Source: an uncultured virus (IMG/VR IMGVR_UViG_3300042520_003480)
Lineage: Duplodnaviria > Heunggongvirae > Uroviricota > Caudoviricetes
Length of the DNA: 63,329 nt
Strand: one strand, 5' to 3'
IMG/VR virus record: IMGVR_UViG_3300042520_003480
Positions 26,071 through 63,329 of the stretch are shown in pieces. Positions within the stretch are counted from its first letter, which is position 1. Every line of letters begins with the position of its first letter. Both the position numbers and the translations under genes were made by a program. A model generated the notes under the pieces. The model made no database searches and had not been told where the DNA came from. It saw only the letters and a list, made by a program, of their open reading frames with translations.

Positions 26071-26089
26071 TACTTTAATTATCAATCTT

Positions 26090-28197: not shown

Positions 28198-28227
28198 GAA
28201 ATTTATTTAGAGACAGTTTGAAATTAA

Positions 28228-28992: not shown

Positions 28993-28997
28993 AATTT

Positions 28998-29465: not shown

Positions 29466-29466
29466 A

Positions 29467-29748
29467 TTAAACTTCTTCAAATGTTACTACTTCTAAATTA
29501 TTTTTGAACTCTTCAAACAAAGTATTTGACGTAACATCTTCATAATTTTCTTCCTTCAAAAATTGAACATTGTTGAGTTTGATATCTGGTTTGAGTTCTT
29601 TTAGTTGCTTAGCCAATTTAAAAAGTTCAGCTTGATACTCTTCATTGGTATTAGATGTTACGTTGACTGAACAAGAAAACAATAAAGCAGAAATTAACGT
29701 TGAGAGGTCTTTTTCTGATACGGAGACATTTAATGAGTTTTTAGACAT
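29467..29748 (-). CDS. hypothetical protein
   Basis: ORF in the operon, with a TTGAC promoter upstream. Confidence 0.65.
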   Translation of the reverse strand: MSKNSLNVSVSEKDLSTLISALLFSCSVNVTSNTNEEYQAELFKLAKQLKELKPDIKLNNVQFLKEENYEDVTSNTLFEEFKNNLEVVTFEEV

Positions 29749-29778
29749 GAGAGAAGATTACGATACTTCTCTGTTTTG

Positions 29779-30399
29779 TCAAGCTTTGATTAACTTTTTT
29801 ACGTCATCCAACGAAAGCCCTACTTGTTGAGCTTCATCTAGCACTTTGTATAATTCGTTTAGCACATCGTCTACCTTTGATTGGTATTCTAATATTTTTT
29901 TATACTTTTGGATGTCCCCTTCCAATAAAACAGAATCATCTTCTAAGTTTTTGGTTGCTTCCATTAACTCTACTTTTGACCCTAAGTATCGTTTAAGCTT
30001 TAATATAGTCCTGACCATTGGCCCGAAGCTTTGTTTCTCTTGCTCTGTAACAGGACGCTTAATCTTATTTCCAACGTCATCAATTATACCTAGTTTATGA
30101 CATTCAAACTCAGTATAATTCTTTTTAAGCTCCGTTAGAAAAACGCTATTATCTAAAAAACTTTGTATAGAATCTTTCAACATATCATTAAAAACTCCTC
30201 CGTGAATGTGCAGGTCGCTTGTTGGATTTAATTTGCATCCTTTTCCGTAGCTAGGTGATCCACAGTAAGAGCACTTTGTAGAATCATCTGGATGAAAATG
30301 GCAACCATGCGGACCAAAACGACAACCTTTACCGTAACTTATTGATCCACAATAGGTACAGCGACTTTGTTGAGTTTTACGGCTGTTTGTTGGCTGCAT
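29779..30399 (-). CDS. hypothetical protein with a duplicated Cys/His zinc-binding repeat
   Basis: CTYCGSISYGKGC...HFH and CSYCGSPSYGKGC...HIH. Confidence 0.7.
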   Translation of the reverse strand: MQPTNSRKTQQSRCTYCGSISYGKGCRFGPHGCHFHPDDSTKCSYCGSPSYGKGCKLNPTSDLHIHGGVFNDMLKDSIQSFLDNSVFLTELKKNYTEFECHKLGIIDDVGNKIKRPVTEQEKQSFGPMVRTILKLKRYLGSKVELMEATKNLEDDSVLLEGDIQKYKKILEYQSKVDDVLNELYKVLDEAQQVGLSLDDVKKLIKA

Positions 30400-33074: not shown

Positions 33075-33479
33075 TTATTTTTTAGCAGCGTGAATAATGA
33101 AGTTTTTAAGCTTCTCAGAAACCGAACGAAGAGTCTTAGCTGCATCTACAATGTCAGCACTTGTTCTGGAATAGATTCCTTCAAAGGGAGTCTCAATTTT
33201 ATCAAGTCTCGAAACTAAAGAATTTAATGAAGAACCATCAGTGCTGTTAAGTTTATTAGCAAAATCTTCGATTTGAGTAATATAATCAGTAAGACTGGTC
33301 GATGTTTGAGATACAGTATCAACTGGAGCGCTAGGTTCTTCTCCTCCCTCACCATCGGTTGCTAAGTCAGTAGGAGGAAGAGGCATTGGCTCGACATCAT
33401 CAAAATCAGCTGGATCAGCTACTTCGCTGTTGTCTTGTTCATTGATAAATACTCTGTTGTAAAGTTCGTCGAAGTTCAT
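33075..33479 (-). CDS. hypothetical acidic protein (head core-like)
   Basis: MNFDELYNRVFINE leader followed by an acidic linker. Confidence 0.65.
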   Translation of the reverse strand: MNFDELYNRVFINEQDNSEVADPADFDDVEPMPLPPTDLATDGEGGEEPSAPVDTVSQTSTSLTDYITQIEDFANKLNSTDGSSLNSLVSRLDKIETPFEGIYSRTSADIVDAAKTLRSVSEKLKNFIIHAAKK

Positions 33480-44582: not shown

Positions 44583-45788
44583 CTAAAAAATACCATCAAG
44601 TTCAGGCAAGTCTTTTCTCAAATCTCTATACTTTCCTTCTTCTTCAAACGCTTTTTTTATTTTATCTTCGAGGTGAGCAAGATTGGTATAACCAAGACCT
44701 AAGTTTATGTTTCCTGTGACTTCAGGAGCTCCTTTAACTCGCTCTGGTTTTGTTAACAACCCACCATATACACTAAAATCTCCAATAATCTTTTTAGGAC
44801 AACCTTCTAAATTTTCTTGTTTGCTTAATGCTGCGACTCCAAACCTTCCAGTCTTAAAAGTAAACGTAAACGGTTTTAAAAAACTAGGATCGTCCAGTTT
44901 ACTCAAATCTACCTCGAAGGGCATTTCCGTAGTATAATGATCTCCTGATACGACTCCGTTATACTTCATGAAATCTTGAATAAATTCGTTTGTAACGGTT
45001 TTTGCGTTCTTATATTTGTCAAAAGTAATGTACGCTCCTCTGTATGACTCCGCATCCATGTACCCTCCAGAGCCAGGCTTTGGCTTGCCTCTTAAACTTT
45101 CTATTAAATACTTGATTGTAAAACCTGCGTGTTCATAATTGTTTGCATCTTTGTCTTTATATGATGTGTACCCATCTCCTTCTAAATGTGAATGCATAAC
45201 ATGATAATATGGTCCTATCAAAATATAATCTTGAAGACGTTTGCTTTTTTTGACGTTCTTTCTAACTAATCTGTGTTCTGGATTAGTTTTTGACTGACCT
45301 AAAATAAAATAAACACTTTCGGTAAAATCATCTTTATTTTTTTCTGCTAACTGCTCATCTATAAGTGGCTGTTCATACCATTCAAAATTAAACGGAGCAG
45401 CTGTAAGATATTGCTTGAGAAGCTTTTCGTTTGCAGGTTGTGTCTGGTAATCAGTCCTAGCTTTCTTTTGAACCCTCATTGCTAGATCCTTTACTTCCGG
45501 TTTTGCATTAACAACACCCTCATATTTTTTTGCTGTCTCTCTGTTATCAAAAGGTCCAGCTAAAATAGTTGCCATGAACGCCTCCTTCTCTCCGTTATCA
45601 AATTCTAGCAAGTACTTTGAGTATGAACCAGGAACCGTTTTATATCCAACTACTTTTCCGGTCATTCCTTGAAATTTATAGGAACGTTTTGGTTGAGGGT
45701 TGTAGTAGCTTAGCTTCTTCGTAACGACTGCATATTCTCCGTTTTGAAAAGGAGCGCGAGTACCAGGCTGGGTGTAATCTTCAAACAT
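44583..45788 (-). CDS. PELxGIF-tagged protein with an N-terminal SH3/KOW-like domain
   Basis: Ends DLPELDGIF; N-terminus resembles 53023..53340. Confidence 0.85.
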   Translation of the reverse strand: MFEDYTQPGTRAPFQNGEYAVVTKKLSYYNPQPKRSYKFQGMTGKVVGYKTVPGSYSKYLLEFDNGEKEAFMATILAGPFDNRETAKKYEGVVNAKPEVKDLAMRVQKKARTDYQTQPANEKLLKQYLTAAPFNFEWYEQPLIDEQLAEKNKDDFTESVYFILGQSKTNPEHRLVRKNVKKSKRLQDYILIGPYYHVMHSHLEGDGYTSYKDKDANNYEHAGFTIKYLIESLRGKPKPGSGGYMDAESYRGAYITFDKYKNAKTVTNEFIQDFMKYNGVVSGDHYTTEMPFEVDLSKLDDPSFLKPFTFTFKTGRFGVAALSKQENLEGCPKKIIGDFSVYGGLLTKPERVKGAPEVTGNINLGLGYTNLAHLEDKIKKAFEEEGKYRDLRKDLPELDGIF

Positions 45789-45801
45789 ATCTTTAATTAT
45801 T

Positions 45802-46167
45802 TTAAAATATTCCTTCTAGTTCCGGAAGCTTTTTAATAAGCTCGTCAAAGTCTGGCTCTAGTGTTATCCGTACGTCCGTTTTGTCAATGTGTTGTTGAAG
45901 TGATGAATTATTAAATGCTTTTTCAATTGTTGTCATTATAAGTTCTTTAAGTTTATCCACATTTGTGTTAAGATCTTCTTCTTTGATATCATAAACAACG
46001 AGAACAGGTCCCTTGTTGGGTGCTTTAATAATTTTATGGCGAAATTTAAATCGTTCTATAAATTTTTGAATAAGAGTCATGCCAAAAATATTTTCTAGCC
46101 AGACTTGGGAGAACTCAGGAGCTTTTACTATTGATGGATAGCTTATTTGTAATTTAAACGTTTTCAT
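45802..46167 (-). CDS. PELxGIF-tagged hypothetical protein
   Basis: Ends KLPELEGIF. Confidence 0.85.
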   Translation of the reverse strand: MKTFKLQISYPSIVKAPEFSQVWLENIFGMTLIQKFIERFKFRHKIIKAPNKGPVLVVYDIKEEDLNTNVDKLKELIMTTIEKAFNNSSLQQHIDKTDVRITLEPDFDELIKKLPELEGIF

Positions 46168-46737
46168 TTAAAATATTCCTTCTAGTTCTGGCAACTTATT
46201 AACCATTTGTTGCATTTTAATTCTTTCTTCTCTCCACTCAAGATAATCCTCTTTAAACAGCGTTCCTTTGCCAACATTTAGCATAACATGCTTAAGTCTG
46301 TTCTTGAGTTGCTCTTGAAGAAAGTTTGAAATTTCATCAGGATAACATTTTTTGTAAACCGTTTTCATATTATTATAATCAAATCCGGAACCCCCAATAA
46401 ACAATTGTCCTTCATCTTCTCTAAGGCCACATTGCATAAAATCGTTCCATACGTGTTTAATAGCTACTGTATATCCAGCATCAAAATCATCAATTATTTT
46501 ATTCTCACGGAAAAACATTACTATACCTCTATTCCATGCAGTAAGCGAATCTGCACGAACTCTCGCAAAAATATTATATTTTTGCATTTTTTTGTCGCTA
46601 ATGTCGTATATAGAAGCGGTACGCAAAACCTTCATCATATTCAAAATGTCTGATTCATTTTTTACAAAAACAGCTTGAATACCATCGGAGATGTCTTTGA
46701 ATAACTTTTCTTCTTCTTTTAAGAATTTAAATTCCAT
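46168..46737 (-). CDS. PELxGIF-tagged hypothetical protein
   Basis: Ends KLPELEGIF. Confidence 0.85.
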   Translation of the reverse strand: MEFKFLKEEEKLFKDISDGIQAVFVKNESDILNMMKVLRTASIYDISDKKMQKYNIFARVRADSLTAWNRGIVMFFRENKIIDDFDAGYTVAIKHVWNDFMQCGLREDEGQLFIGGSGFDYNNMKTVYKKCYPDEISNFLQEQLKNRLKHVMLNVGKGTLFKEDYLEWREERIKMQQMVNKLPELEGIF

Positions 46738-46738
46738 A

Positions 46739-49252
46739 TTAGAATATCCCTTCCAATTCCGGCAAATTCTTTTTTAACTTTCTGAGCTTTTTGCCTTCTC
46801 TGTCAACATAAAGTTTTCCGAAAATTAAACTATTGATTCTATAGTCATAATCTTCTCCTAATTTTGATCCTAGATATCGATCAAGAAAAAACGCAGCTTC
46901 CTTCAATTCTGTCATGTAAGTCTCGTATATCTTTAACGGCACATCACAAAAAACTATACGCAATGGATCGTGAAGAATTTCCCACTCGTATGACAATTTG
47001 TATGATTTTGTATCCCAATTTTCTTCCATCGCGTTTGCAGCAACTCTGTTAAGTTCTGTTGCTATTATTTTTAATATTTCTGGAGAAGTTTTAGTTCCCT
47101 TTGAGTCCGTAGGTTTGACTTCTATTGCAACATCTACATAATTTTTATCATCTGTAGTCTCTTCAGATTCAAAAATCCCTTTGAGTTCTGGAAGCTCATT
47201 TGAAAGAAAATAATGACGAGTTTTCCAAACAAATTCTGGCATGACTGAAATATACTCTCCTGTTATTTTTTCCCGTCTTTTTAAATCTCTTAGACTATCA
47301 TAGTAGTCGTTATAAATGGTTGTTTCCCAGTGATGTCTCCAAGGGCGTAATTCTTTTTGAACGTTTGGGCTTTCTTTTAAAAAGCTTTCGGTCAGATCAA
47401 CCACTAACTCCATTACAATCTTTCCGTTCTCTTCTTCAACTGTCTCTATAGAGGTTTTTTCGAACGCATTTGCTACTGATTTTAAAATTTTATGGAGATC
47501 TTCTTTTTGGCGTGCATAACCTTTATATCTAGTTACTAGCACTGTTTCTGGTTCCTCAGATTCAAAAATCCCTTCTAGCTCAGGTAATTGCTGTTGTAGA
47601 TCATGAAGTCCTTTGTTGATCAATTTCATTTCACAATTCTTGAAAATTTCAGGCAATCTTTTATTTACTACATCCTCCCACTCCATGTCAGGAGCGACTC
47701 TTCTGGCGTCATGCACAAACATTTGTTCTAAAGAACGTTTTAGCATAGTTACTTTACCTGTTTGTGTGTAAAAGTCAGGATTCATCAATTGTATTATTGC
47801 ATGAACCTCCCTGGGACCTTTATCGTACAATGTGTATCTAAAAGTAGTTCTTTTCTTCTCTTCAAGAAACTTCCATAACAGTTCTTTGTTTGTTTTATCT
47901 AAATTTGTAAATTTAGCAATAATGCTATCAGGTTGATTAGTTTTGCTTTCAAAAATTCCTTGAAGCTCAGGAAGATCCTTTAACATCTTATCATAACGAG
48001 AAATCCACTTCGCTGTATAATCAATAGATTCCCTTATCTCAAAGTCCTTTTTAGTACCGTTCCACTGTGTCTGTATTAATCTCGCTAAAGCGTTTTTCTT
48101 TTCTTCACTTAAAGGTTCAGAGGAATTCTCTCTTTCAATAGAAATTGCAAACTTAAATCCTTTGTTGTAACGAATTATCTTACAACTACTAATAGAATCA
48201 GGCATCAGATATCTAGTCAAGTAACTCATTTTAACCTTAAATGACTTTAAAGCTAACCTGACTCTGTCATGATCAGTAGTTCCGTACGTAGGATCGAATG
48301 TTAAAATGAGTTTATCCTTCTCTTGTTTAGACTCAAAAATTCCCTTAAGCTCAGGAAGCTCTCCTGTCATTCTTCTAATTTTTGCCGACTTCTCATCTAT
48401 GTCTATATCTCCTATAGCAAAAAGGTCTAGATAGTATTCCCCTCCATCTAACCATGCATCTAGATTAGCAACAACTCCATATAGTTTGTTTGCATAAGCT
48501 TCAGCAACTTTAGTTGGTACATCGAGAATAACAAACCCATTTGGTTTCAGCTCATATTCGTAGGTATAAATTCCCTTTTCGTCAACATCCCTGCTCATTC
48601 GGTTTTTTGTATATCTTATGAGCTCATAAGCAATAGCATCTATAATTTCGGGAGTGGTTTCATTACCAAATTTATCTTCAGGGTTTACTTCTACTTTTAT
48701 ATCCACTACATCTTTATCTTCTTCAGATTCAAAAATTCCCTTAAGTTCCGGCAACTCTTTTTCCATCTCTTTATACTTGGTCTTTATACCGATCAATTTT
48801 GGACGAAAGAAGCTTACCCAAGAAAGAGTGTTATATTTCTTAGTGTCTTTTCCGGCAGAAAATTGCCTTCCAATGCTATTGCTGATATCATGCATTGAAG
48901 ATCTGAGTCTGCTACTATATGCTCCTAAAATTTCTATAAAGTCCATTTTTAACAACACTGGTTCTGTTAAATCAAGATCATATCCTATAACCGCTAATGT
49001 ATTTTCTCCTAGGTCTTGAGTCTTTAATTTAAAGTCCCAAGTTTTATTTGTCTGTGCTTTGGCTATTTCTTCTGAATGATTTTCTAAAAAATCTTTTAAT
49101 TGGTTTTTTTGCTCTTCGGAGTCTAACTGATACACTAGCCACATTTCTTTTACATCTTCCGCTCTTTTAACGGACTCAATAGGAATTAAATCATAATCTC
49201 CTAATTGTTTGGAAGATTCGTTAACTCTATAAAATTTTTGAAAACTTATCAT
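46739..49252 (-). CDS. six-module PELxGIF polyprotein
   Basis: Five internal LPELxGIFES junctions and a terminal LPELEGIF. Confidence 0.9.
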   Translation of the reverse strand: MISFQKFYRVNESSKQLGDYDLIPIESVKRAEDVKEMWLVYQLDSEEQKNQLKDFLENHSEEIAKAQTNKTWDFKLKTQDLGENTLAVIGYDLDLTEPVLLKMDFIEILGAYSSRLRSSMHDISNSIGRQFSAGKDTKKYNTLSWVSFFRPKLIGIKTKYKEMEKELPELKGIFESEEDKDVVDIKVEVNPEDKFGNETTPEIIDAIAYELIRYTKNRMSRDVDEKGIYTYEYELKPNGFVILDVPTKVAEAYANKLYGVVANLDAWLDGGEYYLDLFAIGDIDIDEKSAKIRRMTGELPELKGIFESKQEKDKLILTFDPTYGTTDHDRVRLALKSFKVKMSYLTRYLMPDSISSCKIIRYNKGFKFAISIERENSSEPLSEEKKNALARLIQTQWNGTKKDFEIRESIDYTAKWISRYDKMLKDLPELQGIFESKTNQPDSIIAKFTNLDKTNKELLWKFLEEKKRTTFRYTLYDKGPREVHAIIQLMNPDFYTQTGKVTMLKRSLEQMFVHDARRVAPDMEWEDVVNKRLPEIFKNCEMKLINKGLHDLQQQLPELEGIFESEEPETVLVTRYKGYARQKEDLHKILKSVANAFEKTSIETVEEENGKIVMELVVDLTESFLKESPNVQKELRPWRHHWETTIYNDYYDSLRDLKRREKITGEYISVMPEFVWKTRHYFLSNELPELKGIFESEETTDDKNYVDVAIEVKPTDSKGTKTSPEILKIIATELNRVAANAMEENWDTKSYKLSYEWEILHDPLRIVFCDVPLKIYETYMTELKEAAFFLDRYLGSKLGEDYDYRINSLIFGKLYVDREGKKLRKLKKNLPELEGIF

Positions 49253-49293
49253 TATCCCTGTTATTTATTTCAAATTTGATATAAATATATCAA

Positions 49294-51057
49294 GTGAGCG
49301 TATACTACAGAAAAATAGATGAAGCAATTTACTCTGCATATCAGTCGAGAATTCTTCTAAAAGAAGAAGCTCAGGGTATTAAGCGCACAGACAAAATGGA
49401 TCCGGAGTTAGAGGCTCAATTCAAACACCGACTTGATATTTGCAAAGCTCACCTTTATAGGGACTTTCCTTGGTACGGAATTTTACTTTCCAAACTTCAC
49501 ACCGTACCCACATATGACATAGACACGATGGCAGTAGATAACTTCGGAAACATCTATATGAATCCAGAGTTTACTATGAAGATGACCCCTGAAGAGACAA
49601 TGGGAGTCTTAGCTCACGAGTGCATGCATATCATGACGCTGAGCTTCTTCAGGCAACATAGTAGAGACATGAAGTTGTGGAATATTGCTACAGACTTCAT
49701 GATGAATTTAGATCTCGTTGAAATGAAAATGTCTCTCCCTGAAGGAGGATGTATTCCTGAAGAAAGAGGAGGCCGTTGGTTTGCTGTTATTCCTAGAGGA
49801 GACGGACAGCCCGATCTAGAGTACGACATAACTGATTTGTCTGCTGAAGAGCTTTATGACAAATTTGAAAAAGATTTAGATAAAGACAAGGAACAACAAA
49901 AACAATCCGGTAAAAAAGATAAGAAACCATTTAAAGTCGGAGACAGAGTTCAATCAAGAAATACTGGAAAGAACGGAACGATTAAAAAAGTTGGCGGATT
50001 GCCACCCAATCAAACTCTTGAAATTGATTGGGATAATGAAGTCACAGAAGCCATCCAAAAGGGCGTTCCCTCTTCTGAGGTAATGCCACTTCTTTCCGGT
50101 GAAGTTGAAATGGATCCCAATGGAGACCAACAAGAAGGAGAAGATTTTGCTCTTGATAAAGATGCTAAAATAAAAATGAAGCCTCAACAAGGAAAGCCGT
50201 CTCCTTCAAAAGGACAAACTTCTGACGTTAAGATAAAAGGAGATTTACAAAAAGTTTTTGATGACCTTGCAGCAAAACGAGAAAAATTTGACAAACACAT
50301 TACTTCGACTGATGCAAAACCAACTCCTTTAGATACAGGAGACCCAGATCTTATGCCAAACCTTGAAGGTGACGCTCACAATCAATTAAAAGATAAGGTT
50401 CAATCAGCAATGACAGCTATTGGTCAAAGAGGATTATCTGCTGGTGGTCCAAGATCATTCCAAAAGAATTTGCAACGTACAAAAACAAATTGGAGAAATC
50501 TTTTAAGAAACTTTTTGTCAGCAATGGAAAGATCTCGTCCAACTTGGTCAAAACCAAAGAAAAGAGCTTTCGCTGCTGGTTATTATGCTCCTGGTTTAAG
50601 AAAAGAGCGCAAGAGTCTCGATGTCGTTGTTGCCATCGACACTAGCGGTTCGATTAGTGATAGGATTATTGGTCTGTTTGTTTCTGAAATTTTTAATATT
50701 TCCAAAGCGTTTCCTAAGGTCCAAATGAAAATTATTCTTTGGCATACTACTGCTTATGCTGACATCGACATAGATACTAAAAAAGTATCTCCAGCACAAG
50801 TTTTAAATATGCTCAATAACCTACCATACGAAGGTGGTGGAACGGAATTAACTTCTGTTAAGGCTTACTTGGACAAAGAATATCCCAATGAAGCATTTGG
50901 AGGTATTATCGTATTCACTGATGGTTATGTAGAAGAGACACCGAGCTTCCCTAAACTTTCAGACCAAAAGAACAAACTGTTTTTATTAACTCCAGATGGA
51001 GATGATAAGACACTAAAAAAATACGGCACTACAGTAAAAATTGATGTTTACCAATAA
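49294..51057 (+). CDS. DUF2201-like metallopeptidase-VWA protein
   Basis: TMAVD, LAHECMH and WNIATD; VWA MIDAS IDTSGS, GGGT and VFTDGY; GTG start. Confidence 0.88.
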   Translation: MSVYYRKIDEAIYSAYQSRILLKEEAQGIKRTDKMDPELEAQFKHRLDICKAHLYRDFPWYGILLSKLHTVPTYDIDTMAVDNFGNIYMNPEFTMKMTPEETMGVLAHECMHIMTLSFFRQHSRDMKLWNIATDFMMNLDLVEMKMSLPEGGCIPEERGGRWFAVIPRGDGQPDLEYDITDLSAEELYDKFEKDLDKDKEQQKQSGKKDKKPFKVGDRVQSRNTGKNGTIKKVGGLPPNQTLEIDWDNEVTEAIQKGVPSSEVMPLLSGEVEMDPNGDQQEGEDFALDKDAKIKMKPQQGKPSPSKGQTSDVKIKGDLQKVFDDLAAKREKFDKHITSTDAKPTPLDTGDPDLMPNLEGDAHNQLKDKVQSAMTAIGQRGLSAGGPRSFQKNLQRTKTNWRNLLRNFLSAMERSRPTWSKPKKRAFAAGYYAPGLRKERKSLDVVVAIDTSGSISDRIIGLFVSEIFNISKAFPKVQMKIILWHTTAYADIDIDTKKVSPAQVLNMLNNLPYEGGGTELTSVKAYLDKEYPNEAFGGIIVFTDGYVEETPSFPKLSDQKNKLFLLTPDGDDKTLKKYGTTVKIDVYQ

Positions 51058-51065
51058 ATAACACT

Positions 51066-52538
51066 ATGGAATTAGAAAGCATTACAGAATCTCCGTTCTT
51101 GAACGCATATAAAAGATTTGTGCTCAAAGAAGCAAAAAAAGAAGCCATTGCTGCAGACATGGAAGCCAAGGCCGCTCCAATGGTTAACAAAATTAACCAA
51201 CCTGAAGCTCCTCAAGCTGAAGACGAAGACGATGAGATGGAATGGGATAGCGGAGCAATTGAGACAGAAGATACCTCTACTCTCAGCAAATACGATTATC
51301 AGCGTTTGCATGATTTTATCTCGCTATCATACAGAACAAAAAGAGCTCTGTTAATTTACGGAGATCCTGGCATTGGCAAGAGTCAAATGGTTCAGCAATT
51401 TACTAGACAAATGGCTGCAAGTAAAGGTAAAGCATATCTTGATTGGGACGAGGCCAATAACAATCAACAATTGGATGCCATCAAGAATCCAGGTAAATAC
51501 TTTTTGTATATAGACGTTAGAGCTGACTCTCTTGATCCAACCGATCTTGCCGGCATTCCAAAACTTCAAAGCAATGAAGAGTTTCTTGAGACCCAAATTC
51601 CTAAATGGCTCTACATAATGGCTCAACCAGAGTCTGATGGTATCTTATTCTTAGATGAATTGAATAACGCAGAGCCACAAATGATTAAAGCTTTGTATAA
51701 AGTTGTGGATAAAAAAGTTGGCAACGTAAAGTTATCAGAAAATTTTGGTATTCTTGCTGCTGGCAATCTTGGAGCTGAATTTGGCGGCAATCCACTTCCT
51801 TGGGCTCTTACAAACAGATTTGAAAGTGGTGTACTTGTTGCTGATGCTGAATCTTGGCTCTCGTACGCTGAAAAAGCTGGAGTTGATAAAAGGATTATTG
51901 CTTTCGTTAAGTCTGAACCAGAAGTCAACTTCAATCCAAAACCACCAGGGGGATTTGGTGGCGGTGACACACATATCACATGGGCTTCCCCAAGAGCAAT
52001 GATGATGCTTTCTGATAAAATTACTCAACTCAGAAAAGCTTATGCAGAGGCAAAAGCCGAAGGTCATCCTATTCAAACCCCTATAATTGCTGCAGTCAAA
52101 CAAAGTGCTGTTGGACTTTGCGGAGAACAATGGGCAAGAAGATTTGACGCATTCATGAGACACTTTAAATCATTTGATTTTGGTGGAATTGTTAAGAGTG
52201 CCGAAAGTGGAGAATTGCAAGCAGAAAAGAGAGACAAACTTCATGCTCTTCTCATGTTTGTCATGGGCAAGCTTAAGCCAGCTCTTAAGCGCTCAGAAGA
52301 ACAAAAAACCATCTCCGAAGATGATAAAGGAGTATTCATCGGTCTTGCTAAAATCACAAACGACTTCAAGCCAGAATGGAAAGTTAATTTGTTTTCCCTT
52401 TTAAAGAAAGACCTTACCGTTGAACAATTACAAATCTTGATGACCTTCTTATTAAGAGGAGATTATGACGCAAAGACTAAAAAGGTCTTCATAGAAGAAG
52501 CTCTTCCTAAAATTAAATCAATAACATCCTACAAATAA
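51066..52538 (+). CDS. MoxR-like AAA+ ATPase
   Basis: GDPGIGKS, DLAGIP, LFLDELN, AAGN, ALTNRF and SPR. Confidence 0.9.
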   Translation: MELESITESPFLNAYKRFVLKEAKKEAIAADMEAKAAPMVNKINQPEAPQAEDEDDEMEWDSGAIETEDTSTLSKYDYQRLHDFISLSYRTKRALLIYGDPGIGKSQMVQQFTRQMAASKGKAYLDWDEANNNQQLDAIKNPGKYFLYIDVRADSLDPTDLAGIPKLQSNEEFLETQIPKWLYIMAQPESDGILFLDELNNAEPQMIKALYKVVDKKVGNVKLSENFGILAAGNLGAEFGGNPLPWALTNRFESGVLVADAESWLSYAEKAGVDKRIIAFVKSEPEVNFNPKPPGGFGGGDTHITWASPRAMMMLSDKITQLRKAYAEAKAEGHPIQTPIIAAVKQSAVGLCGEQWARRFDAFMRHFKSFDFGGIVKSAESGELQAEKRDKLHALLMFVMGKLKPALKRSEEQKTISEDDKGVFIGLAKITNDFKPEWKVNLFSLLKKDLTVEQLQILMTFLLRGDYDAKTKKVFIEEALPKIKSITSYK

Positions 52539-52545
52539 TAAAATT

Positions 52546-53022
52546 ATGAAAGAATATCGACACGCCCGCAACATTGCAGAACAGATTTATTTTTGTGGCA
52601 AGAGAAGGCTGACAACAGAACAAAAAGAGATGCTGAGAAATTCTCCTTTCTCCAATCTTTTGGAGATGGTCGAGAAGCCAAATTTTATCAAACTTGCTGA
52701 AACAGTTGAAAAGCAATTGACTGACGCTAAGCCAGAAAAGCCTAAATCTTCTCCTGATTATTCTCCTAGCAAATCAAGATACCTTACTGGATATCATGCA
52801 GGGGAAATCAAGGAGCTAATTAGTCACATTGAGGATCACTTCAAGCTCGGAGTTCCATACAACTACAACGATCTTCCTGCTGATAAGCTCAAAGAATTCA
52901 TCAATCAATATGCTGAACACAAAATTTTTGATGATCACACAAAAGACTTAGTTCTCAGAGTTAAAGAGCAAGAACACCCAGAAGAGATCATGGGAACTTT
53001 AAGATTGTACGCTAGACATTAA
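52546..53022 (+). CDS. hypothetical protein downstream of the VWA/AAA pair
   Basis: ORF on the same strand, with TAAATA-like AT-rich sequence upstream. Confidence 0.7.
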   Translation: MKEYRHARNIAEQIYFCGKRRLTTEQKEMLRNSPFSNLLEMVEKPNFIKLAETVEKQLTDAKPEKPKSSPDYSPSKSRYLTGYHAGEIKELISHIEDHFKLGVPYNYNDLPADKLKEFINQYAEHKIFDDHTKDLVLRVKEQEHPEEIMGTLRLYARH

Positions 53023-53340
53023 TTAAAAAATTCCTTTTAGTTCGGGAAGTTCTTCCATCATTTTTCTCATCTTTATTTCTTCTTCTGTAGGTCGTCTTAA
53101 AAAGTGAGAATGAAGTCCAAATATGCTTCCATTCGAAAGCTTTACTGCATATTTAGAATAAGCTCCAGCTGCATACTTATAACCTACTATTTCACCAATT
53201 TGATCAATGGCCTGCCTTGATTTAGCAGAGTGATACGAGTCCCACTTTCCTACATCTTCTATTTTTACTTCGTCTCCTATTTGAAACTTGGCTTTAGGTC
53301 CTGGTTGGCCGTAGCCCTTTAATCCAAATAATTCATTCAT
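53023..53340 (-). CDS. PELxGIF-tagged SH3/KOW-like protein
   Basis: KFQIGDEVKI...GEIVGY; ends ELPELKGIF. Confidence 0.85.
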   Translation of the reverse strand: MNELFGLKGYGQPGPKAKFQIGDEVKIEDVGKWDSYHSAKSRQAIDQIGEIVGYKYAAGAYSKYAVKLSNGSIFGLHSHFLRRPTEEEIKMRKMMEELPELKGIF

Positions 53341-53768
53341 ACGTCAAATATTCCTTTTAATTCAGGATGTTCGTCAGTCATATCATCATACGGATCTGTG
53401 ACTATTTTAAATTTTTCTTTCTTAGGTATATCAGAAAGAGAAAAAATTTTAGGAGTCTTTACAACCTCAATAATTCTTCTGTATACTTTGTGCGGATCTT
53501 CCCTCACATGCAAACTTTTTGGAATAATCACGTACACGAGATGCTCATAGTCAACTCTGCGTATTATTTTTACGCCTTCTCTTTTTAATCCTGACTTGCT
53601 AATTGCTTTCAACATTAGCTCTGTGTCATCAGGCATGATTATATAAGCACTATAATAGTTTTCAAGGTCTCTACCAAAAGCTATACCTTGTTCATCAAAA
53701 ATAGAAGGAACTTGACCAACAATCTTGTTGTATGCTTGCTCCAGCAATATTTGATCCTTAGTTTTCAC
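53337..53768 (-). CDS. leader- and PELxGIF-tagged hypothetical protein
   Basis: MKTKDQILLEQAY...EHPELKGIFDV. Confidence 0.85.
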   Translation of the reverse strand: MKTKDQILLEQAYNKIVGQVPSIFDEQGIAFGRDLENYYSAYIIMPDDTELMLKAISKSGLKREGVKIIRRVDYEHLVYVIIPKSLHVREDPHKVYRRIIEVVKTPKIFSLSDIPKKEKFKIVTDPYDDMTDEHPELKGIFDV

Positions 53769-53782
53769 TAAGTTATTTATAT

Positions 53783-54079
53783 TTAAACTGGAATTAATGC
53801 TGGACGAGCAAAATCTTCTTGTGGAGTATAGAAGACATAATAATCGTGACCGGCTTCACTCGGATACCCAAAATTAGCGGCATCCTCTCTTTTAGCTACA
53901 TAAGCTGTCTTAAAGGATTTCCCTTCTTCCATTTTTCTTTTTAAATTAGAACAATCGTTCATATCATCTAAAAACATAATGTCTTCGGTTGGGCCAGAAT
54001 AGTAACTAAAGTCTTGTTCTGGAGATTCATTGATTGCTTTGTATGCTTCTTCTAGCAATTGTTGGTCTTTGGACTTCAT
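53783..54079 (-). CDS. leader-bearing hypothetical protein without the C-terminal tag
   Basis: MKSKDQQLLEEAYKAINES. Confidence 0.8.
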   Translation of the reverse strand: MKSKDQQLLEEAYKAINESPEQDFSYYSGPTEDIMFLDDMNDCSNLKRKMEEGKSFKTAYVAKREDAANFGYPSEAGHDYYVFYTPQEDFARPALIPV

Positions 54080-54088
54080 GTATTTTAT

Positions 54089-54640
54089 TTAATCAAAAAA
54101 GATGCCATTTAACTCAGGGAGCTCTGTTGAGAATCTCTTTTCCATTTCGTACTGCTTTTTTTGTTCTTCTGTAGGAAAATCAATTAGAGATTCGTCAATG
54201 GCATATACTTCTCCGTTTGGTCTTTTAATTCCTTTAAGCGTTTCAATAACATCGCTCGAGTTCCCTTTAAACATTTCGCTACTTTTTATTTGCTGCCTGC
54301 CAACCACTATGCCACACTTTCCTGCAACTTTATTCCATTGTTTTACATACTCAGGTTTTAGTCTAGAAAAATTCAACCAATGACACTCTTCAGATGTCAT
54401 TACATAAGCAACATCCCCAATCTCTATTCGTACTCCGCAGCACTTATTAAATGGTTTATTTGAACCACATATACAAGGGCCTTTGCGTTGTTCTGAATCT
54501 TTTTCTAGTTTTTCCCATCCAGGATCTGGAGCAACTGGCTTATTCTCTTCTCCTTCCTCGAGGTGAATAAGATGATTATTCTTGCAATAAACCATTCCCA
54601 TATACAATTCCTCAAGTAACTTTTGATCTGTTGATTTCAC
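54089..54640 (-). CDS. leader- and PELxGIF-tagged protein with a SEC-C motif
   Basis: MKSTDQKLLEELY; PCICGSNKPFNKCCG; ends ELPELNGIFFD. Confidence 0.85.
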   Translation of the reverse strand: MKSTDQKLLEELYMGMVYCKNNHLIHLEEGEENKPVAPDPGWEKLEKDSEQRKGPCICGSNKPFNKCCGVRIEIGDVAYVMTSEECHWLNFSRLKPEYVKQWNKVAGKCGIVVGRQQIKSSEMFKGNSSDVIETLKGIKRPNGEVYAIDESLIDFPTEEQKKQYEMEKRFSTELPELNGIFFD

Positions 54641-54657
54641 TCATTATACTTAATATT

Positions 54658-54948
54658 TCAAACAGCTGTCATTACTTTTTTAGAATTAACTATTTTCTTC
54701 ATCCATTCTGTATTCTGATAACTAAGATTGACCCCAGATGATTTGGATACCGGATGGCTATCAACGATGTCACTCAGAGCTTGGCTCAATTCATTTAATT
54801 GTTCTAATGGTTTTTTTCTGTGATCAATCTCTTGATCAATAATGGCTGACCCAGCTTTGTATTCAGCTAGCAAAACATCGACTATGTGATTGAGTTCTTG
54901 TATCTTAACTTTAGTATCGTCTACTAGATCATGTATTGTGTTAAACAT
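54658..54948 (-). CDS. hypothetical helical protein
   Basis: ORF with a TTGACT promoter upstream. Confidence 0.65.
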   Translation of the reverse strand: MFNTIHDLVDDTKVKIQELNHIVDVLLAEYKAGSAIIDQEIDHRKKPLEQLNELSQALSDIVDSHPVSKSSGVNLSYQNTEWMKKIVNSKKVMTAV

Positions 54949-54990
54949 AAATTAATGCTCTATGTATTTTAATTTAAGTCAACAAATTAT

Positions 54991-55322
54991 TGGCTGAGGC
55001 CGCATTGGCTACCGGGTCTTTATCCCGTTGGACGCTGGCTGTTCATTTAACTCTGCCTACTCGAGACCAAATAGTATTCAGCCGGGGTACCTCGGCATTA
55101 TTGAAGCCCACAGGTGATCGTTTCTGTCGCTTGCTTTCTCAGCCGCCGACTGTATGGAAGAAGGGGGCCAAAGGTTCCGAACCCTCTCGAAAGGCCTGTC
55201 CTTCACGCATTCGAGTGCTCCGTAGTGTACTACCACTCTCCATAAAAATTATCAAATAACAAGTTCCGATTTTGTGTTGTGAATTTTTATTCACCGTTGG
55301 CTCATCGGGAACCAACTCTCAT
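54991..55322. ncRNA. candidate structured non-coding RNA(s), three domains
   Basis: GC-rich island with closing helices GGCTGAG/CTCAGCC and TATGGA/TCCATA plus a pseudoknot-like third domain. Confidence 0.6.
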
Positions 55323-55364
55323 AAACTTTATTTATTTTCGTTTAAAAATTACAAAAGTCAACTG

Positions 55365-55760
55365 CTAAAGATCGCTTGATAAATCTTCGTGAAAATAAGC
55401 GTTGGTTACGGGAGTGTCATCGTGTCTCCATTTCATCCATGCTTCAGCAATAGATTTTGGATCATTCCACCACGCTCTTAGAGGTATTGATTTCCACTCA
55501 CTATCCCAAACCCATAGGCGATTCTTTCCTGGAGGATACAGGTAGGCACACGTAGAGTGTCCCCATTTTTCTGTATTAATTGAAAGAACTCTTGCTTGGA
55601 TATCTTCTTCTCTCAAGCCTTGCGCTACAGCAATCGCTTCAGGCAAACATGCTTTTCTATAGGAGCCGACCCAACTAGGAACTCCGGTGGGTGGTTTACT
55701 TGTGCAGCCAATTAAAAAGAGCGCTAAAAGGCATCTACAAAATGTGTTAATAAATTTCAT
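55365..55760 (-). CDS. lipoprotein with a transglutaminase/papain-like Cys-His-Asp arrangement
   Basis: Lipobox LIGC; ACLPEA, WGHSTC and VWDS. Confidence 0.6.
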   Translation of the reverse strand: MKFINTFCRCLLALFLIGCTSKPPTGVPSWVGSYRKACLPEAIAVAQGLREEDIQARVLSINTEKWGHSTCAYLYPPGKNRLWVWDSEWKSIPLRAWWNDPKSIAEAWMKWRHDDTPVTNAYFHEDLSSDL

Positions 55761-55826
55761 TGTTCTTATTTATATCAAGAATCATAAATATTTTTTCAAA
55801 GTATCTAACAAAAGATAAATACTTTT

Positions 55827-56366
55827 GTGAACAAAGACCAAAGACTCCTAGAAGAAGCTTATAGAAGTATCTATGAGTCAAAATTTTATACAGATCCAAG
55901 GTTGACTAAACGAGAGCAAGAGTTTGTCAACAAAGTCGTAGACGAAATAGTGGACAACAATTATACGATAAAATACACCGATGCTCCAACTGCTCGAGTT
56001 GATGAGCAAGAAAGAAACACTGCTTTAGCTACCATTAAAAAGATAATTGAATACATGTTTAAAGATTTTCCAGGCATACATATTCCGCTTATTCGAGCTG
56101 CTCACCAAACACTAGCAGCTTGGCATTCTACATTCACAGAAATGATAAAAGCAAAACTTGTTCCAGAAGACAAGAAGGATAGAGAAGAAATCAAAGACAC
56201 GCTCAAAAATCATATAGCAACTTATATAGCAAAGTTTTTTGAAGACGCTGGCAAACCAGGAGGTTTTCTAATTAAAAACACTGCTGAATACCTCAAACAC
56301 AGAGAAGAGGAAATTAAATATGGTCCGATGCGCGATGAGCTGCCTGAACTAAAAGGAATATTCTAA
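55827..56366 (+). CDS. leader- and PELxGIF-tagged hypothetical protein
   Basis: MNKDQRLLEEAYRSIYES...ELPELKGIF. Confidence 0.85.
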   Translation: MNKDQRLLEEAYRSIYESKFYTDPRLTKREQEFVNKVVDEIVDNNYTIKYTDAPTARVDEQERNTALATIKKIIEYMFKDFPGIHIPLIRAAHQTLAAWHSTFTEMIKAKLVPEDKKDREEIKDTLKNHIATYIAKFFEDAGKPGGFLIKNTAEYLKHREEEIKYGPMRDELPELKGIF

Positions 56367-56845
56367 TGAAGGCATTTGAACAATTAGTACTAGAAGCAAT
56401 GGAAGAAGAGTTCACAATAATTCTTTGGTGTTCATGGTTTCATTTGTTGAATGACGAGTACAAAAAAGAAATCCTATCTATGTTTAAATGGTTTGGTCGC
56501 AAGCATCCTCAAGGGATAGCTCACCAATTCCATCTAAGAGATTGGCAGAATCCAATGTATAAACAAGTACAAGTTGATTACGAGGAAGATGAAAACGGAC
56601 CAAAGATAACTTTAACAAACATACGTTGTAACAGATATCAAGCAGGAAGCTTATTAGATGAAATACGTCTCAAAGCGTTTGGTGAGTATCTTCATCGTAA
56701 CAAAATAATGAAATACTTAAAAGACACAGTAAAAATACCAATTGAAGGAACTCGGCTTTTTAGAGATCCAACAATAGACGGAAAGGCTATTGGTAAGTAT
56801 GACGATATGGTAAAAGACCTTCCAGAGCTAGAAGGAGTATTTTAA
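56366..56845 (+). CDS. PELxGVF-tagged protein, paralog 1
   Basis: MKAFEQLVLEA...DLPELEGVF; TAATG coupling. Confidence 0.85.
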   Translation: MKAFEQLVLEAMEEEFTIILWCSWFHLLNDEYKKEILSMFKWFGRKHPQGIAHQFHLRDWQNPMYKQVQVDYEEDENGPKITLTNIRCNRYQAGSLLDEIRLKAFGEYLHRNKIMKYLKDTVKIPIEGTRLFRDPTIDGKAIGKYDDMVKDLPELEGVF

Positions 56846-57321
56846 TGAAAGCGTTTGAACAATTAGTACTGGAAGCAATGGAAGAAGAGTTCACAATAAT
56901 TCTTTGGTGTTCATGGTTTCATTTGTTAAATGAGAAATACAAAAAGGAAATCTTAGATATGTTTAGATGGCATAGTAGGAGGCATCCAGATGGAATAGCT
57001 TTTCAGTTTCATCTAAGAGATTGGCAGAATCCGATGTATAAACAAGTGCAGGTTGATTATGAAGAAGACGAAAACGGACCAAAAATGACTTTAACAAACA
57101 TACACTGCACAAGATATCAAGCTGGAAGCTTATTAGATGAAATACGTCTTAATACGTTTAAACTCAAAGGGAGAGACAACACACTAAAGTATCTGAGAGA
57201 TACAGTAAAAATACCAATTGAAGGAACTCGGTATTTTAGAGATCCAACAATAGACGGAAAAGTTTTCGGTAAGTATGACGATATGGTAAAAGACCTTCCA
57301 GAGTTAGAAGGAGTATTTTAA
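56845..57321 (+). CDS. PELxGVF-tagged protein, paralog 2
   Basis: Near-identical tandem copy of the preceding gene. Confidence 0.85.
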   Translation: MKAFEQLVLEAMEEEFTIILWCSWFHLLNEKYKKEILDMFRWHSRRHPDGIAFQFHLRDWQNPMYKQVQVDYEEDENGPKMTLTNIHCTRYQAGSLLDEIRLNTFKLKGRDNTLKYLRDTVKIPIEGTRYFRDPTIDGKVFGKYDDMVKDLPELEGVF

Positions 57322-57683
57322 TGAAAACAAATGACCAACAACTGTTAGAAGAAGCGTATAATGCTGTCGTAACAGAAGGAGTTTTGCCTTCTAAGGCTTT
57401 TAGATCAAAACCTTTACATCAAAAGAAAGTGCTTTATCGTTTATTTGCGAAACCAGACAAGAAGATGGGAGGCAAGTATTTCTGGGGAGAAAAATTATCT
57501 TGGGCTGGAGAATTTGAGAGTGTCGAAGAGGCGTTAGTTTACTTAAAAAACTTGTACGTGTATAGCGAAGATATGGAGTACGTAATAAAAGAAGTTATAA
57601 TTGAGTACTCAGAGAAGACAGTTGAACAAAGTGGACTCCGGCAAATGAGAGATGATCTTCCGGAACTTAAAGGTATTTTTTAA
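57321..57683 (+). CDS. leader- and PELxGIF-tagged hypothetical protein
   Basis: MKTNDQQLLEEAY...DLPELKGIF. Confidence 0.85.
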   Translation: MKTNDQQLLEEAYNAVVTEGVLPSKAFRSKPLHQKKVLYRLFAKPDKKMGGKYFWGEKLSWAGEFESVEEALVYLKNLYVYSEDMEYVIKEVIIEYSEKTVEQSGLRQMRDDLPELKGIF

Positions 57684-58276
57684 TGAAGACAAAGGACCAA
57701 CAACTCCTAGAACTTTTATATGAACAAGTAGTTGAAGGTTCTAAAGATTTGCTTCCAGAAGAAAAAAAGTTTTCAGAGGCAGCTGCTAAGATTATTTCCA
57801 AACAAATCTTCACAGCAGTAGAAGGAAGAATTCACAACAATGGAAAGTTAGACTTTGAATACCTAGGGGATCTAATTGATACTCATTTTGACAAGGCTTT
57901 AGATATTTTTAGTCCTGATTACGATTATTTTGTAAGAAGAGTTGTTAGAGTACATTTAGCACACGATTTGTTTAATCGACTCGTTTTTGTCAAAACGATA
58001 GACGGCAAAGTCAATGTATGCTTCCGACCTGCAAAATTTGTTACAACAGATCAATATAATGAAGACAGATTGTTTATTCCTATTGAAAATAAGCAAGAAG
58101 TGGAAGAACAGTTAAGAAAAACAATAGAAGATGTTATTCTGGAGCGTTATGATTACTTCTTAAAGTATCCTCGTTCATCAACGTCAAATGAAACAAAGTG
58201 GGTTGCGTGGAGAAAAGAAAAGCTCAAATATAAAGCTCTCACTAACGAACATCCCGAACTCGAAGGAATATTTTAA
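57683..58276 (+). CDS. leader- and PELxGIF-tagged hypothetical protein
   Basis: MKTKDQQLLELLY...EHPELEGIF. Confidence 0.85.
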   Translation: MKTKDQQLLELLYEQVVEGSKDLLPEEKKFSEAAAKIISKQIFTAVEGRIHNNGKLDFEYLGDLIDTHFDKALDIFSPDYDYFVRRVVRVHLAHDLFNRLVFVKTIDGKVNVCFRPAKFVTTDQYNEDRLFIPIENKQEVEEQLRKTIEDVILERYDYFLKYPRSSTSNETKWVAWRKEKLKYKALTNEHPELEGIF

Positions 58277-58692
58277 AAAACACCCTCTAACTCAGGTAGT
58301 TCTTTTTTCAATTTACTAAACTTTTCAAACTCCTCGATTGTTTTAGAATCAGCTGTAGAATTAAAATCTATCTGTCCCATCCAATATACGTCTTCTTTAT
58401 CTTTTGGTGAAAGTCCAAATGTTGTATATCCTTTCATCTTAGTTGCACGAGCTCTGGTGTTACCATCCTTAACAGAAACAAAAAAATCTCCTTCGTCCTC
58501 AATATCCCAAACCCAACCCACAGAAAGATCTAAATCCTTTAGAAAGGTATTAGCAAACCTTTTTTCAAATTCTTGATCATCGCAATAATCTCTTATTTGC
58601 TGGAGTTCTTCTTCTGTTGCTCTACGCAAAATCTTTGCTGAACTTACTTGATTATAAGCTTCTTCTAGCAACTGTTGGTCTTTAGTCTTCAC
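58273..58692 (-). CDS. leader- and PELxGVF-tagged hypothetical protein
   Basis: MKTKDQQLLEEAY...ELPELEGVF; convergent with the previous gene. Confidence 0.85.
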   Translation of the reverse strand: MKTKDQQLLEEAYNQVSSAKILRRATEEELQQIRDYCDDQEFEKRFANTFLKDLDLSVGWVWDIEDEGDFFVSVKDGNTRARATKMKGYTTFGLSPKDKEDVYWMGQIDFNSTADSKTIEEFEKFSKLKKELPELEGVF

Positions 58693-62014: not shown

Positions 62015-62118
62015 TGGAAGAAGTGGTTGGATTCGAACCAACGGCTTGCTTTTACCCCACAGCGTTAAGGTCCTTCACCGTGAGTGGGTTGCTGCTCTAC
62101 CAACTGAGCTACACTTCT
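62015..62118 (-). ncRNA. tRNA-like RNA with an enlarged anticodon region
   Basis: Perfect acceptor, D and T arms with CCA, but 51 nt between the D and T stems and no canonical anticodon loop. Confidence 0.75.
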
Positions 62119-62123
62119 TGTTT

Positions 62124-62196
62124 CTGCAATGGAGGGACTTTAACCCTCAACCTCCCGCCTACAAAGCAGGACTCTAGTCATTTGAGCTACATCGCA
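62124..62196 (-). tRNA. degenerate tRNA (UGU anticodon, Thr-like) or pseudo-tRNA
   Basis: All four stems pair, but the T-loop is TTAAAGT and the D-loop lacks GG. Confidence 0.55.
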
Positions 62197-62627: not shown

Positions 62628-63083
62628 TTATTTATTGTAAGTCACGTCAAATATATTTTTCTTTACGACGCCATAGTCTCCAGGACCATGCTTGACAATA
62701 TAGTCTTCTCCGGCTTTGTATTCCAAGTCCGCTCCCCAAGAAGTCTTAACAACCCCATTTGAATCAGCGAGCTTAGCAGTCTTCATAATCTTCTTTGGGC
62801 TGCACTTCCCTTCTCCAAGATCATCCTTCAGTTCCCGGAACTTCTCTGCTGGCATTGAATACTTCTCACCTTTCGGGCCCGTCAATATATAGAAGCCAGC
62901 TTTGTATTGCTGAGAGCCTTCTAGCGTTTGAAGTGTCCCATCTTCTGAAGCAATCTCATATTGCTCTACTGCTGGCTTCTTATAAGTCTCAAAAGCTCCC
63001 TCCTGAAACCACTCATCTGTAATTTGTTCAATTAACACTCTAGAATAAGCTTCTTCTAAGAGTGTCTGGTCGTTGGACTTCAT
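62628..63083 (-). CDS. PGDYG-like protein with the MKxxDQxLLEEAY leader
   Basis: MKSNDQTLLEEAY; TLEG...GPKGEKY and HGPGDYGVVK. Confidence 0.75.
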   Translation of the reverse strand: MKSNDQTLLEEAYSRVLIEQITDEWFQEGAFETYKKPAVEQYEIASEDGTLQTLEGSQQYKAGFYILTGPKGEKYSMPAEKFRELKDDLGEGKCSPKKIMKTAKLADSNGVVKTSWGADLEYKAGEDYIVKHGPGDYGVVKKNIFDVTYNK

Positions 63084-63329
63084 GAGTTTATTTATCAATA
63101 TTGCCACATATACTATCTAGACAACTGCAGACTGCTTCCCTCAATGGAGCTCCAACAACTACCGTTAAGCTTTGTCTGGACTGCTCTTCAATGTGCTTGA
63201 GGACCTCTGCAGCCTTTGCTAGGTCTTGTTTAAGCAACTCACACTGCATTATTGTTTCCATGCGCCGAGCAATGGCCTCGTCACGTTCTGTGCAAACGCC
63301 AAGATATGCGTCGACTCTTTCTGAGTCCG

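Follow-up and report, generated by a model that had tools for sequence, protein, structure and literature searches.

A predicted late MoxR/peptidase-vWA module with clade-specific N-terminal extensions and tagged neighbours in uncultured T4-like phages

Large phages commonly encode a MoxR ATPase together with a metallopeptidase fused to a von Willebrand factor A (vWA) domain, and the role of this pair has so far been guessed to lie in virion assembly and processing. What such a pair might do, and on which proteins, is the question raised by one locus in the IMG/VR record IMGVR_UViG_3300042520_003480, a stretch of uncultured-phage DNA of 63,329 nucleotides (nt) that is referred to here, at its full length, as the window. 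The initial annotation had proposed that the peptidase-vWA and MoxR proteins of this locus carry N-terminal extensions echoing a leader found on neighbouring genes, and that both may be packaged and act on tagged cargo. We found that these two genes join with a third of 158 amino acids (aa) in a module confined to one uncultured T4-like clade. The MoxR/peptidase-vWA pair that is widespread in phages is present in this module in rearranged and lengthened form; the two-gene pair itself has already been published (Iyer et al. 2021). The module is predicted to be late-transcribed and to consist of a zinc-peptidase-vWA co-chaperone, a MoxR AAA+ ATPase and a small partner, with the following genes and domains:

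49294..51057, + strand: gene for an HExxH metallopeptidase-vWA protein of 587 aa with a GTG start (DUF2201_N plus DUF2201/VWA; PHROG 1314)
49615..49629, + strand: HECMH zinc-binding motif, residues 108-112, with H108, E109 and H112 invariant in 26 sequences
49915..50187, + strand: inserted SH3-like (Tudor/KOW/CAP-Gly-like) predicted beta-barrel, residues ~208-298 of the vWA protein, in the closest subclade only
50620..50964, + strand: vWA domain with a complete metal ion-dependent adhesion site, MIDAS (DTSGS 449-453, T517, D543), all MIDAS residues being invariant
51066..52538, + strand: gene for a MoxR-type AAA+ ATPase of 490 aa (AAA_5; PHROG 1297), with Walker A at residue 99 and Walker B at 194
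52546..53022, + strand: third module gene, 158 aa, without a family match, kept 3' of MoxR in relatives and without a TAAATA of its own

The 49294-51057 product matched the Pfam families DUF2201_N (putative metallopeptidase, E-value 5.3e-26), DUF2201 (5e-8) and VWA (1.9e-6), as well as PHROG 1314 (2.9e-70). In its AlphaFold model, which has a predicted local distance difference test (pLDDT) score of 80.9, the C-terminal domain resembles solved vWA/I domains (149 matches at E<=0.001). The ATPase matched AAA_5 in Pfam (3.2e-6) and PHROG 1297 (2.1e-49), the bpMoxR model scored 19.8 bits on it, under the cut-off of 27 bits, and its motifs GDPGIGKS at residue 99, LFLDE at 194 and AAGN at 231 are invariant or nearly so among homologues. 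With the HExxH motif, the complete MIDAS, Walker A and Walker B all in place, the catalytic cores of both proteins are intact. The 158-aa third protein gave no match in Pfam, PHROG or PADLOC and no usable match in the Protein Atlas. We found no paper on the function of phage DUF2201 proteins. A defence-system reading of the locus was considered and dropped, PADLOC having given no defence-family match above noise.

PHROG profile searches of the window proteins identified the source of the window as a T4-like phage, with a gp32-type single-stranded DNA-binding protein, a DnaB-like helicase, UvsX, a gp43-type polymerase, SbcCD-type nucleases, a gp55-type late sigma factor, a primase and an RNA ligase; the window also has 11 tRNA genes and one tmRNA, and the G+C content of the genome is 31–41%. 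No cultured phage is near the window by DNA, the best cultured-phage protein matches are 22–31% identical, and the nearest record (G001, 16 kb) is without the module genes. The vWA protein used as a lone query of IMG/VR found no close relatives; the relatives compared here came from an alignment query together with a scan for the tag pattern described below. The order vWA, then MoxR, then a protein of ~150-170 aa without a family match is found in the window, L081/G006, L082, L083, L001, L002 and G007, the last being a 218.4-kb record rated 100% complete. In the window, the gap between the vWA and MoxR genes is 8 nt. The generic phage pair, with both genes present in 122 of the 161 loci examined, usually has MoxR (~365 aa) first and vWA (~425 aa) second.

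The lengthening of the clade proteins includes an N-terminal extension on each enzyme:

49294..49395, + strand: clade-specific vWA extension, residues 1-34 (~34-36), with a helix at 4-24 predicted at low confidence, ending L-K-E
51066..51290, + strand: clade-specific MoxR extension of ~75-80 residues, with a putative leader-family helix at ~9-23 ending L-K-E-A, followed by an acidic linker

These extensions shift the active-site motifs relative to the generic forms. The median position of HExxH is residue 108 in clade proteins (19 of 19) versus 72 in generic ones (71 of 74), and that of Walker A is residue 106 (56 of 56) versus 24 (60 of 61). None of the 430 and none of the 571 cultured-phage records matched covered 80% of either query. 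In the vWA alignment, the first Met of the relatives falls two residues past the window GTG. Since both extensions are conserved in sequence among homologues, the upstream starts are real, and the extensions initially noted on both proteins stand as clade-conserved features.

Both enzyme genes, as well as a polyprotein gene transcribed divergently from them, start close to promoter-like motifs:

49280..49287, + strand: TATAAATA, late-promoter-like, 6 nt before the vWA GTG, with a motif at the corresponding position in five of seven clade loci and in G007
51053..51060, + strand: AATAAATA, late-promoter-like, overlapping the vWA stop codon, with TAAATA at 51055-51060, 5 nt before the MoxR ATG
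49262..49267, - strand: TAAATA, late-promoter-like, 9 nt before the polyprotein ATG and within the 41-nt divergent gap

Across the window, TAAATA ends 4-10 nt before the start of 16 of 77 genes, compared with 0.34 expected from its overall frequency, and 2000 shuffles of the 30 nt upstream gave a mean of 1.7 and a maximum of 6 for the same geometry; the modal gap is 5-6 nt. As an 8-mer, TATAAATA is not enriched across the window (8 found, 5.9 expected). Among the clade loci, TAAATA lies 5-12 nt before the MoxR start in 7/7 and before the vWA start in 5/7 (absent in L081 and L001), and it precedes the third gene in 0/6. In G007, the motif precedes 68 of 315 open reading frames (ORFs) versus 1.8 expected. 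Among these, 58 ORFs have at least 100 aa and 18 of the 58 have a PHROG match at E<=1e-5; 12 of the 18 are virion or assembly proteins, including the portal, head maturation (prohead) protease, head-tail adaptor, tail tube, baseplate parts and fibres, and the other six are MoxR, vWA, PhoH, a phosphoesterase and two of unknown function. TATAAATA is the T4 late consensus (PMC3606486). Given the geometry and conservation of the motif, the gp55-type factor in the window and this consensus, the predicted assignment of both genes to the late class is well supported, and the late-type promoters initially described just upstream of both starts are upheld. The same is true of the divergent transcription of the pair and the polyprotein across the 41-nt gap, in which one TAAATA faces each way. 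Window starts in general lie 5-10 nt past TAAATA, or ~7-8 nt past early promoters resembling TTGAC-N17-TATAAT, and Shine-Dalgarno sequences are rare, so many window mRNAs may be leaderless or nearly so, several with a GTG start.

We next consider the leader, an N-terminal peptide shared by window genes. At least seven window genes begin M-K-x-K-D-Q-x-L-L-E-E-A-Y, two begin M-K-A-F-E-Q-L-V-L-E, and three further ORFs match by profile. A profile was made from the first 28 residues of 48 clade MoxR homologues, with the window protein and its 91% twin excluded. Searched against 339 window ORF N-termini, it returned MoxR and then nine straight leader ORFs (E 1.5e-4 to 0.18), with six leader-bearing ORFs at E<=0.01 and the first match after the nine at E 1.4. 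The 339 reversed sequences gave 0 at E<=0.2, and 1695 shuffled sequences (five per sequence) gave 0 at E<=0.01 and 1 at E<=0.2. The profile also picks up leader ORFs in G004, G005, G006 and G007. Many homologous MoxR N-termini read L-L-x-A-Y-x-x-V-x-x-x-E-A, which accounts for the retrieval of leader ORFs by this profile. The helix near the start of the MoxR extension appears to belong to one peptide family with the leaders on the neighbouring tagged proteins. The vWA extension has a conserved helix similar in style to the leader, and the MoxR profile weakly matches the vWA N-termini of L082, L085 and L083 (E 0.0035, 0.06 and 0.072). An aromatic residue, 2-7 residues and then hydrophobic-x-E occur within the first 32 residues of 49/56 clade MoxR and 15/19 clade vWA proteins, as compared to 3/61 generic MoxR and 12/74 generic vWA proteins, and an L-K-E site is present in both window proteins.

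Could this likeness be a matter of chance or composition, with A-rich, Lys/Glu-rich starts in an AT-rich phage whose mRNAs seem nearly leaderless, and no shared signal at all? The G+C content of 31–41% would suit such an origin, starts 5-6 nt past a promoter-like motif could constrain the first codons, and the two N-termini of the window itself fail the leader profile (see below). However, shuffles of the same composition gave 0/1695 at E<=0.01, and the hydrophobic and Tyr positions are conserved in protein across homologues of 30–68% identity. We consider a chance origin very unlikely.

A few of the leader genes in the window were noted individually. The tandem paralogues at 56366-56845 and 56845-57321 (+ strand) have the ten-residue start M-K-A-F-E-Q-L-V-L-E, which by its length and its pattern is very like the T4 capsid targeting sequence (CTS) quoted in PMC8442874. 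An acidic 134-aa protein with a leader-type start is encoded at 33075-33479 (- strand), adjoining the primase gene and with TATAAATA 10 nt upstream, and homologues of this product hold the same position in G006, G005 and G007. In the ORFs at 62628-63107 and 24964-26085 (both - strand) the leader motif stands at an internal Met, which probably places the true starts 3' of the GTG and TTG given for these ORFs.

What could a leader-type peptide do on an ATPase? In T4, the CTS is an N-terminal peptide of ~10 residues by which proteins are loaded on the prohead core and which is removed by a single cut (PMC8442874; PMC5694885), and foreign proteins fused to it get packaged (PMC8442874). Cleavage by T4-type proteases falls after Glu, as at ITE and LTE in Alt (PMC5694885). 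In MoxR-vWA systems, an extended peptide is bound at the vWA MIDAS, and the client leaves the MoxR ring in a changed state (PMC7159879). In Acidianus two-tailed virus (ATV), the MoxR protein p618 is a major virion component and is stimulated by its vWA partner p892 (PMC4124505). On the strength of these precedents, and of the intact catalytic motifs, the clade-specific extensions with their cleavage-like sites, the leader family of the MoxR N-termini, the late-class motif and the tagged genes adjoining the module (described below), we tentatively favour, while placing it somewhat below an even chance, the reading that the window encodes a late chaperone-protease module which leader-type peptides deliver to the prohead along with the tagged proteins. 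The leader would work like the T4 CTS, binding the prohead core, and a gp21-type protease would then clip it after hydrophobic-x-Glu. Entry into the prohead alongside the leader- and tag-bearing proteins would apply to the ATPase and, with less certainty, to the peptidase-vWA protein. Once inside, the vWA MIDAS would hold an extended acidic client peptide, the ATPase would remodel the client, and the fused peptidase could trim it.

The T4 system (IPI-III, Alt; gp21; Mullaney and Black 1996 as cited in PMC8442874 and PMC5694885) resembles the one proposed here in that unrelated late proteins share a short N-terminal peptide, the peptide ends hydrophobic-x-Glu, and a gp21-type protease is present in the clade: its gene was found in the complete relative G007 (PF03420, 5.6e-30), and none was found in the window. 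The differences are that the leader family here spans ~18-22 residues compared with 10 in T4, that it begins beyond residue 2 in MoxR and vWA, and that T4 packages no AAA+ ATPase; leader targeting and cleavage here are putative. ATV likewise encodes a MoxR-vWA pair, and its ATPase is a virion component acting on virion proteins, but ATV is an archaeal virus without the peptidase fusion or any leader/tag system, and the role shown there is in extracellular tail growth (PMC4124505). The main text of the rV5 proteome paper makes no mention of an ATPase, MoxR, von Willebrand or metallopeptidase.

A number of observations weigh against delivery of the module to the prohead. A profile of the seven window leaders scored 1.6 bits (E=9) on the window vWA protein, and the window MoxR was not among the matches listed, down to E 27; taken literally, the echo of the leader in these two N-termini is therefore not significant. 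A profile of the vWA-clade N-termini found no leader ORF in the window (best non-self match E 0.45), and the apparent leader likeness of the conserved vWA extension is not significant. The leader echo proposed initially for both proteins thus survives at the family level for MoxR, through the homologue profile and its controls, and falls away for the two window sequences set against the leader profile and for vWA. The leader-like MoxR helix also begins at about residue 9, without the initial M-K-x-K-D-Q of the leaders. The hydrophobic-x-Glu site is short and common, with [LIV]-x-E occurring in residues 9-30 of 29/61 generic MoxR proteins and 34/93 window ORFs. Leader genes are found amid replication genes as well (33075 beside the primase gene; 51987 and 55697 in G006), so a leader need not mean head cargo. 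No head genes were found in the window or in G002-G006, the motif is not in the 40 bases upstream of the major head protein gene of G007, and L081/G006 have no tagged gene in the 16 kb around the module.

The main alternative is that the module is a cytoplasmic late assembly chaperone-protease, whose work of folding, assembling or trimming virion or tagged proteins is done inside the cell, with no packaging of the module itself. The helices and acidic linkers would then be family-specific elements serving oligomerisation, regulation or partner binding, and would resemble leaders merely as short amphipathic helices. Iyer et al. 2021 propose virion assembly and peptidolytic processing for the pair (PMC7824862, section 3.4.5), and MoxR-vWA pairs generally remodel clients within the cell (PMC7159879). 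Late expression would suit assembly no less than cargo, the vWA extension bears no significant likeness to the leader, and the generic pair occurs free of extensions in the 430 and 571 cultured-phage records. A cytoplasmic role would leave unexplained, however, why the MoxR profile retrieves leader ORFs when reversed and shuffled controls give 0 at E<=0.01, and why the extensions almost always end in hydrophobic-x-Glu (49/56 and 15/19). We regard it as possible, if on the doubtful side.

If the module acts on clients, then its neighbours are of interest. On both sides of the module lie genes with a shared C-terminal tag, the nearest being:

46739..49252, - strand: divergent polyprotein carrying the LPELxGIF tag six times, with GIF-ES at each of the five internal junctions
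53023..53340, - strand: tagged 105-aa protein with a probable small barrel domain, whose family adjoins the module in L082, L083 and G007

In total, 13 window genes between 44.5 and 58.7 kb (44583-58692) carry [LH]-P-E-L-x-G-[IV]-F; 10 of the 13 end exactly on the motif, counting the sixth copy in the polyprotein, and two have two residues beyond it. The products of 44583 and 53023 are mutually homologous (3e-12) and have relatives beside the module in L083, L082 and G007; a PDB sequence search with 53023 gave nothing useful. Other members of the clade have other tags. L082 has six or seven genes (5713-9970) ending D-W-G-G-I-I-D-E-L that are directly divergent from the vWA gene, and L083 is arranged alike. 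G007 has 20 genes ending F-G-G-L-L-D-V-L, one directly 3' of the module and 19 elsewhere, L120 has six ORFs ending L-L-D-V-L-I that flank the vWA gene on both sides, and in G006 the contig end opposite the module holds five or more P-E-[LI]-x-G-I-F genes. The module is linked to tagged genes in the window, L082, L083, G007 and L120 despite the changed tag. The initial annotation had looked to close homologues in phages with no tagged genes as grounds for doubt; every closer relative with enough sequence (G006, L082, L083 and G007) was found to have tagged genes. More distantly related pairs are widespread in phages (122 of the 161 loci have both genes), and cultured phages were not surveyed for tags.

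Some further observations concern the tags themselves. Across the clade, C-terminal tags are carried by many small, mostly unrelated proteins, the version of the tag varies by phage, and many of these proteins have an N-terminal leader too. The DNA polymerase of the window (6602-9151, - strand) ends in a clamp-binding-type peptide (acidic-Leu-x-x-hydrophobic-Phe) that resembles the last six residues of the tag, and the tag could on this similarity be a sliding-clamp-binding peptide. Elsewhere, generic MoxR/peptidase-vWA pairs are flanked by arrays of proteins of 65-104 aa with F-x-L-[RK]-W-x as their common C-terminal ending (L096 8063-12469 and L125 9106-12933), which may be a paralogous family or another tag. 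G006 (L172-L178) and L081 are two independent assemblies of nearly one phage with an identical first base, and the G006 contig terminates within a tagged polyprotein-like ORF; from this shared start and this end, assemblies may break at repeated tag genes.

The linkage to tagged genes also raises the possibility that leaders and/or C-terminal tags are simply peptides recognised by the vWA MIDAS or the ATPase, the tags being unrelated to the capsid and the leader-like MoxR helix serving the enzyme as an internal docking element or pseudo-substrate. Extended peptides are the ligands of vWA MIDAS sites, with release of the client by MoxR (PMC7159879), and the MIDAS of this protein is complete and invariant. 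Acidic residues are present in all tag versions, and the pair has tagged genes beside it in the window, L082, L083, G007 and L120 in spite of their differing tags. On the other hand, 19 of the 20 G007 tagged genes are far from the module, the G006 tagged cluster and module are at opposite contig ends, and the shared synteny may be mere inheritance. We consider such addressing of clients by their peptides unlikely. Distinctly unlikely, in our estimate, is the combined version in which the module is the receptor and processing machine of the clade-wide C-terminal tags and is itself prohead-addressed by T4-like leaders. In this combined version, dozens of small proteins would be captured at the MIDAS by their acidic C-terminal tags, then remodelled by the MoxR ring and trimmed by the zinc-peptidase.

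The HExxH peptidase had also been put forward as a candidate for cutting the polyprotein. The GIF-ES junctions give an I-F-E site, of the kind that T4-type prohead proteases cut, with Glu at P1 (PMC5694885). With such a site at every junction, the peptidase is not needed to explain polyprotein processing, and the prohead protease could cut the polyprotein, as the HExxH domain still might.

A further link between the vWA protein and the tagged proteins had been seen in its inserted segment, described as KOW/SH3-like and similar in style to segments of the tagged proteins at 44583, 53023 and 54089. The insert is found in 10 of the 26 aligned homologues, the ten closest only. Folded alone from nine sequences, it was predicted to be a beta-barrel (pLDDT 81.9), and its best fold matches were CAP-Gly, the PcrA/UvrD Tudor domain (5dma; TM-score 0.74 by target, root-mean-square deviation 2.3), HspQ, Spt5/NusG KOW and chromodomains, with a best E of 7.6e-3 and none reaching 1e-3. 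No Pfam KOW or SH3 match was found for the insert, and a PDB sequence search with its profile gave nothing useful. The predicted barrel and its small-barrel fold matches make the SH3/KOW-like label reasonable at the fold level. Kinship to the segments of the tagged proteins did not hold up: blastp between the insert and these proteins gave E 0.002 (53023), 0.19 (44583) and 1.2 (54089), and homology to the 53023/44583 barrel family is not claimed, hhalign having given a probability of 0.8% over 10 columns.

How does the module compare with published systems of the same kind? In group 2.2 jumbo phages, a MoxR ATPase and a metallopeptidase-vWA co-chaperone have been proposed to serve virion assembly and processing (Iyer et al. 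2021, PMC7824862). This jumbo-phage pair (PHROG 1297 and 1314) is like the window pair in both architectures, in adjacency, in its phage host and in its intact catalytic motifs. In contrast, the window clade has the reversed order (vWA then MoxR), a conserved third gene, extensions of ~36 and ~80 residues, the SH3-like insert in the closest subclade, and tagged genes as neighbours. With the MoxR-vWA ternary systems (Kaur et al. 2020, PMC7159879) the module shares MoxR, a vWA protein with an effector-type peptidase domain, a conserved third protein and the proposed capture of peptides by the MIDAS. The third protein of the window, which has no Pfam match, matches none of the four third components of the ternary systems (VMAP, iSTAND, FtsH and beta-propeller), and the context of those systems is cellular defence, whereas that of the window module is phage late genes.

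Two further features of the window were noted away from the module. At 62018-62118 (- strand), a 101-nt Rfam tRNA match that was uncalled by ARAGORN adjoins tRNA-Thr (62124-62196) and may carry an insertion or intron. At 26694-30399, homing-endonuclease-like, thymidylate-kinase-like, and QueE- and QueD-like (7-deazaguanine pathway) genes stand amid the replication genes.

The clade offers handles on the role of the pair in its predicted late-class expression, in the leader-family peptide of its MoxR and in its recurring arrays of tagged proteins with the tag varying by phage. Should the leader prove to be a capsid address, no tailed phage before this one would have been predicted to pack an AAA+ chaperone-protease. 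Should the tags be ligands of the vWA domain, the clients of a widespread, uncharacterised phage machine would be named. And if the module is both tag receptor and prohead-addressed, a tailed phage would package, and possibly inject, an ATP-driven machine for protein remodelling along with the clients of that machine.

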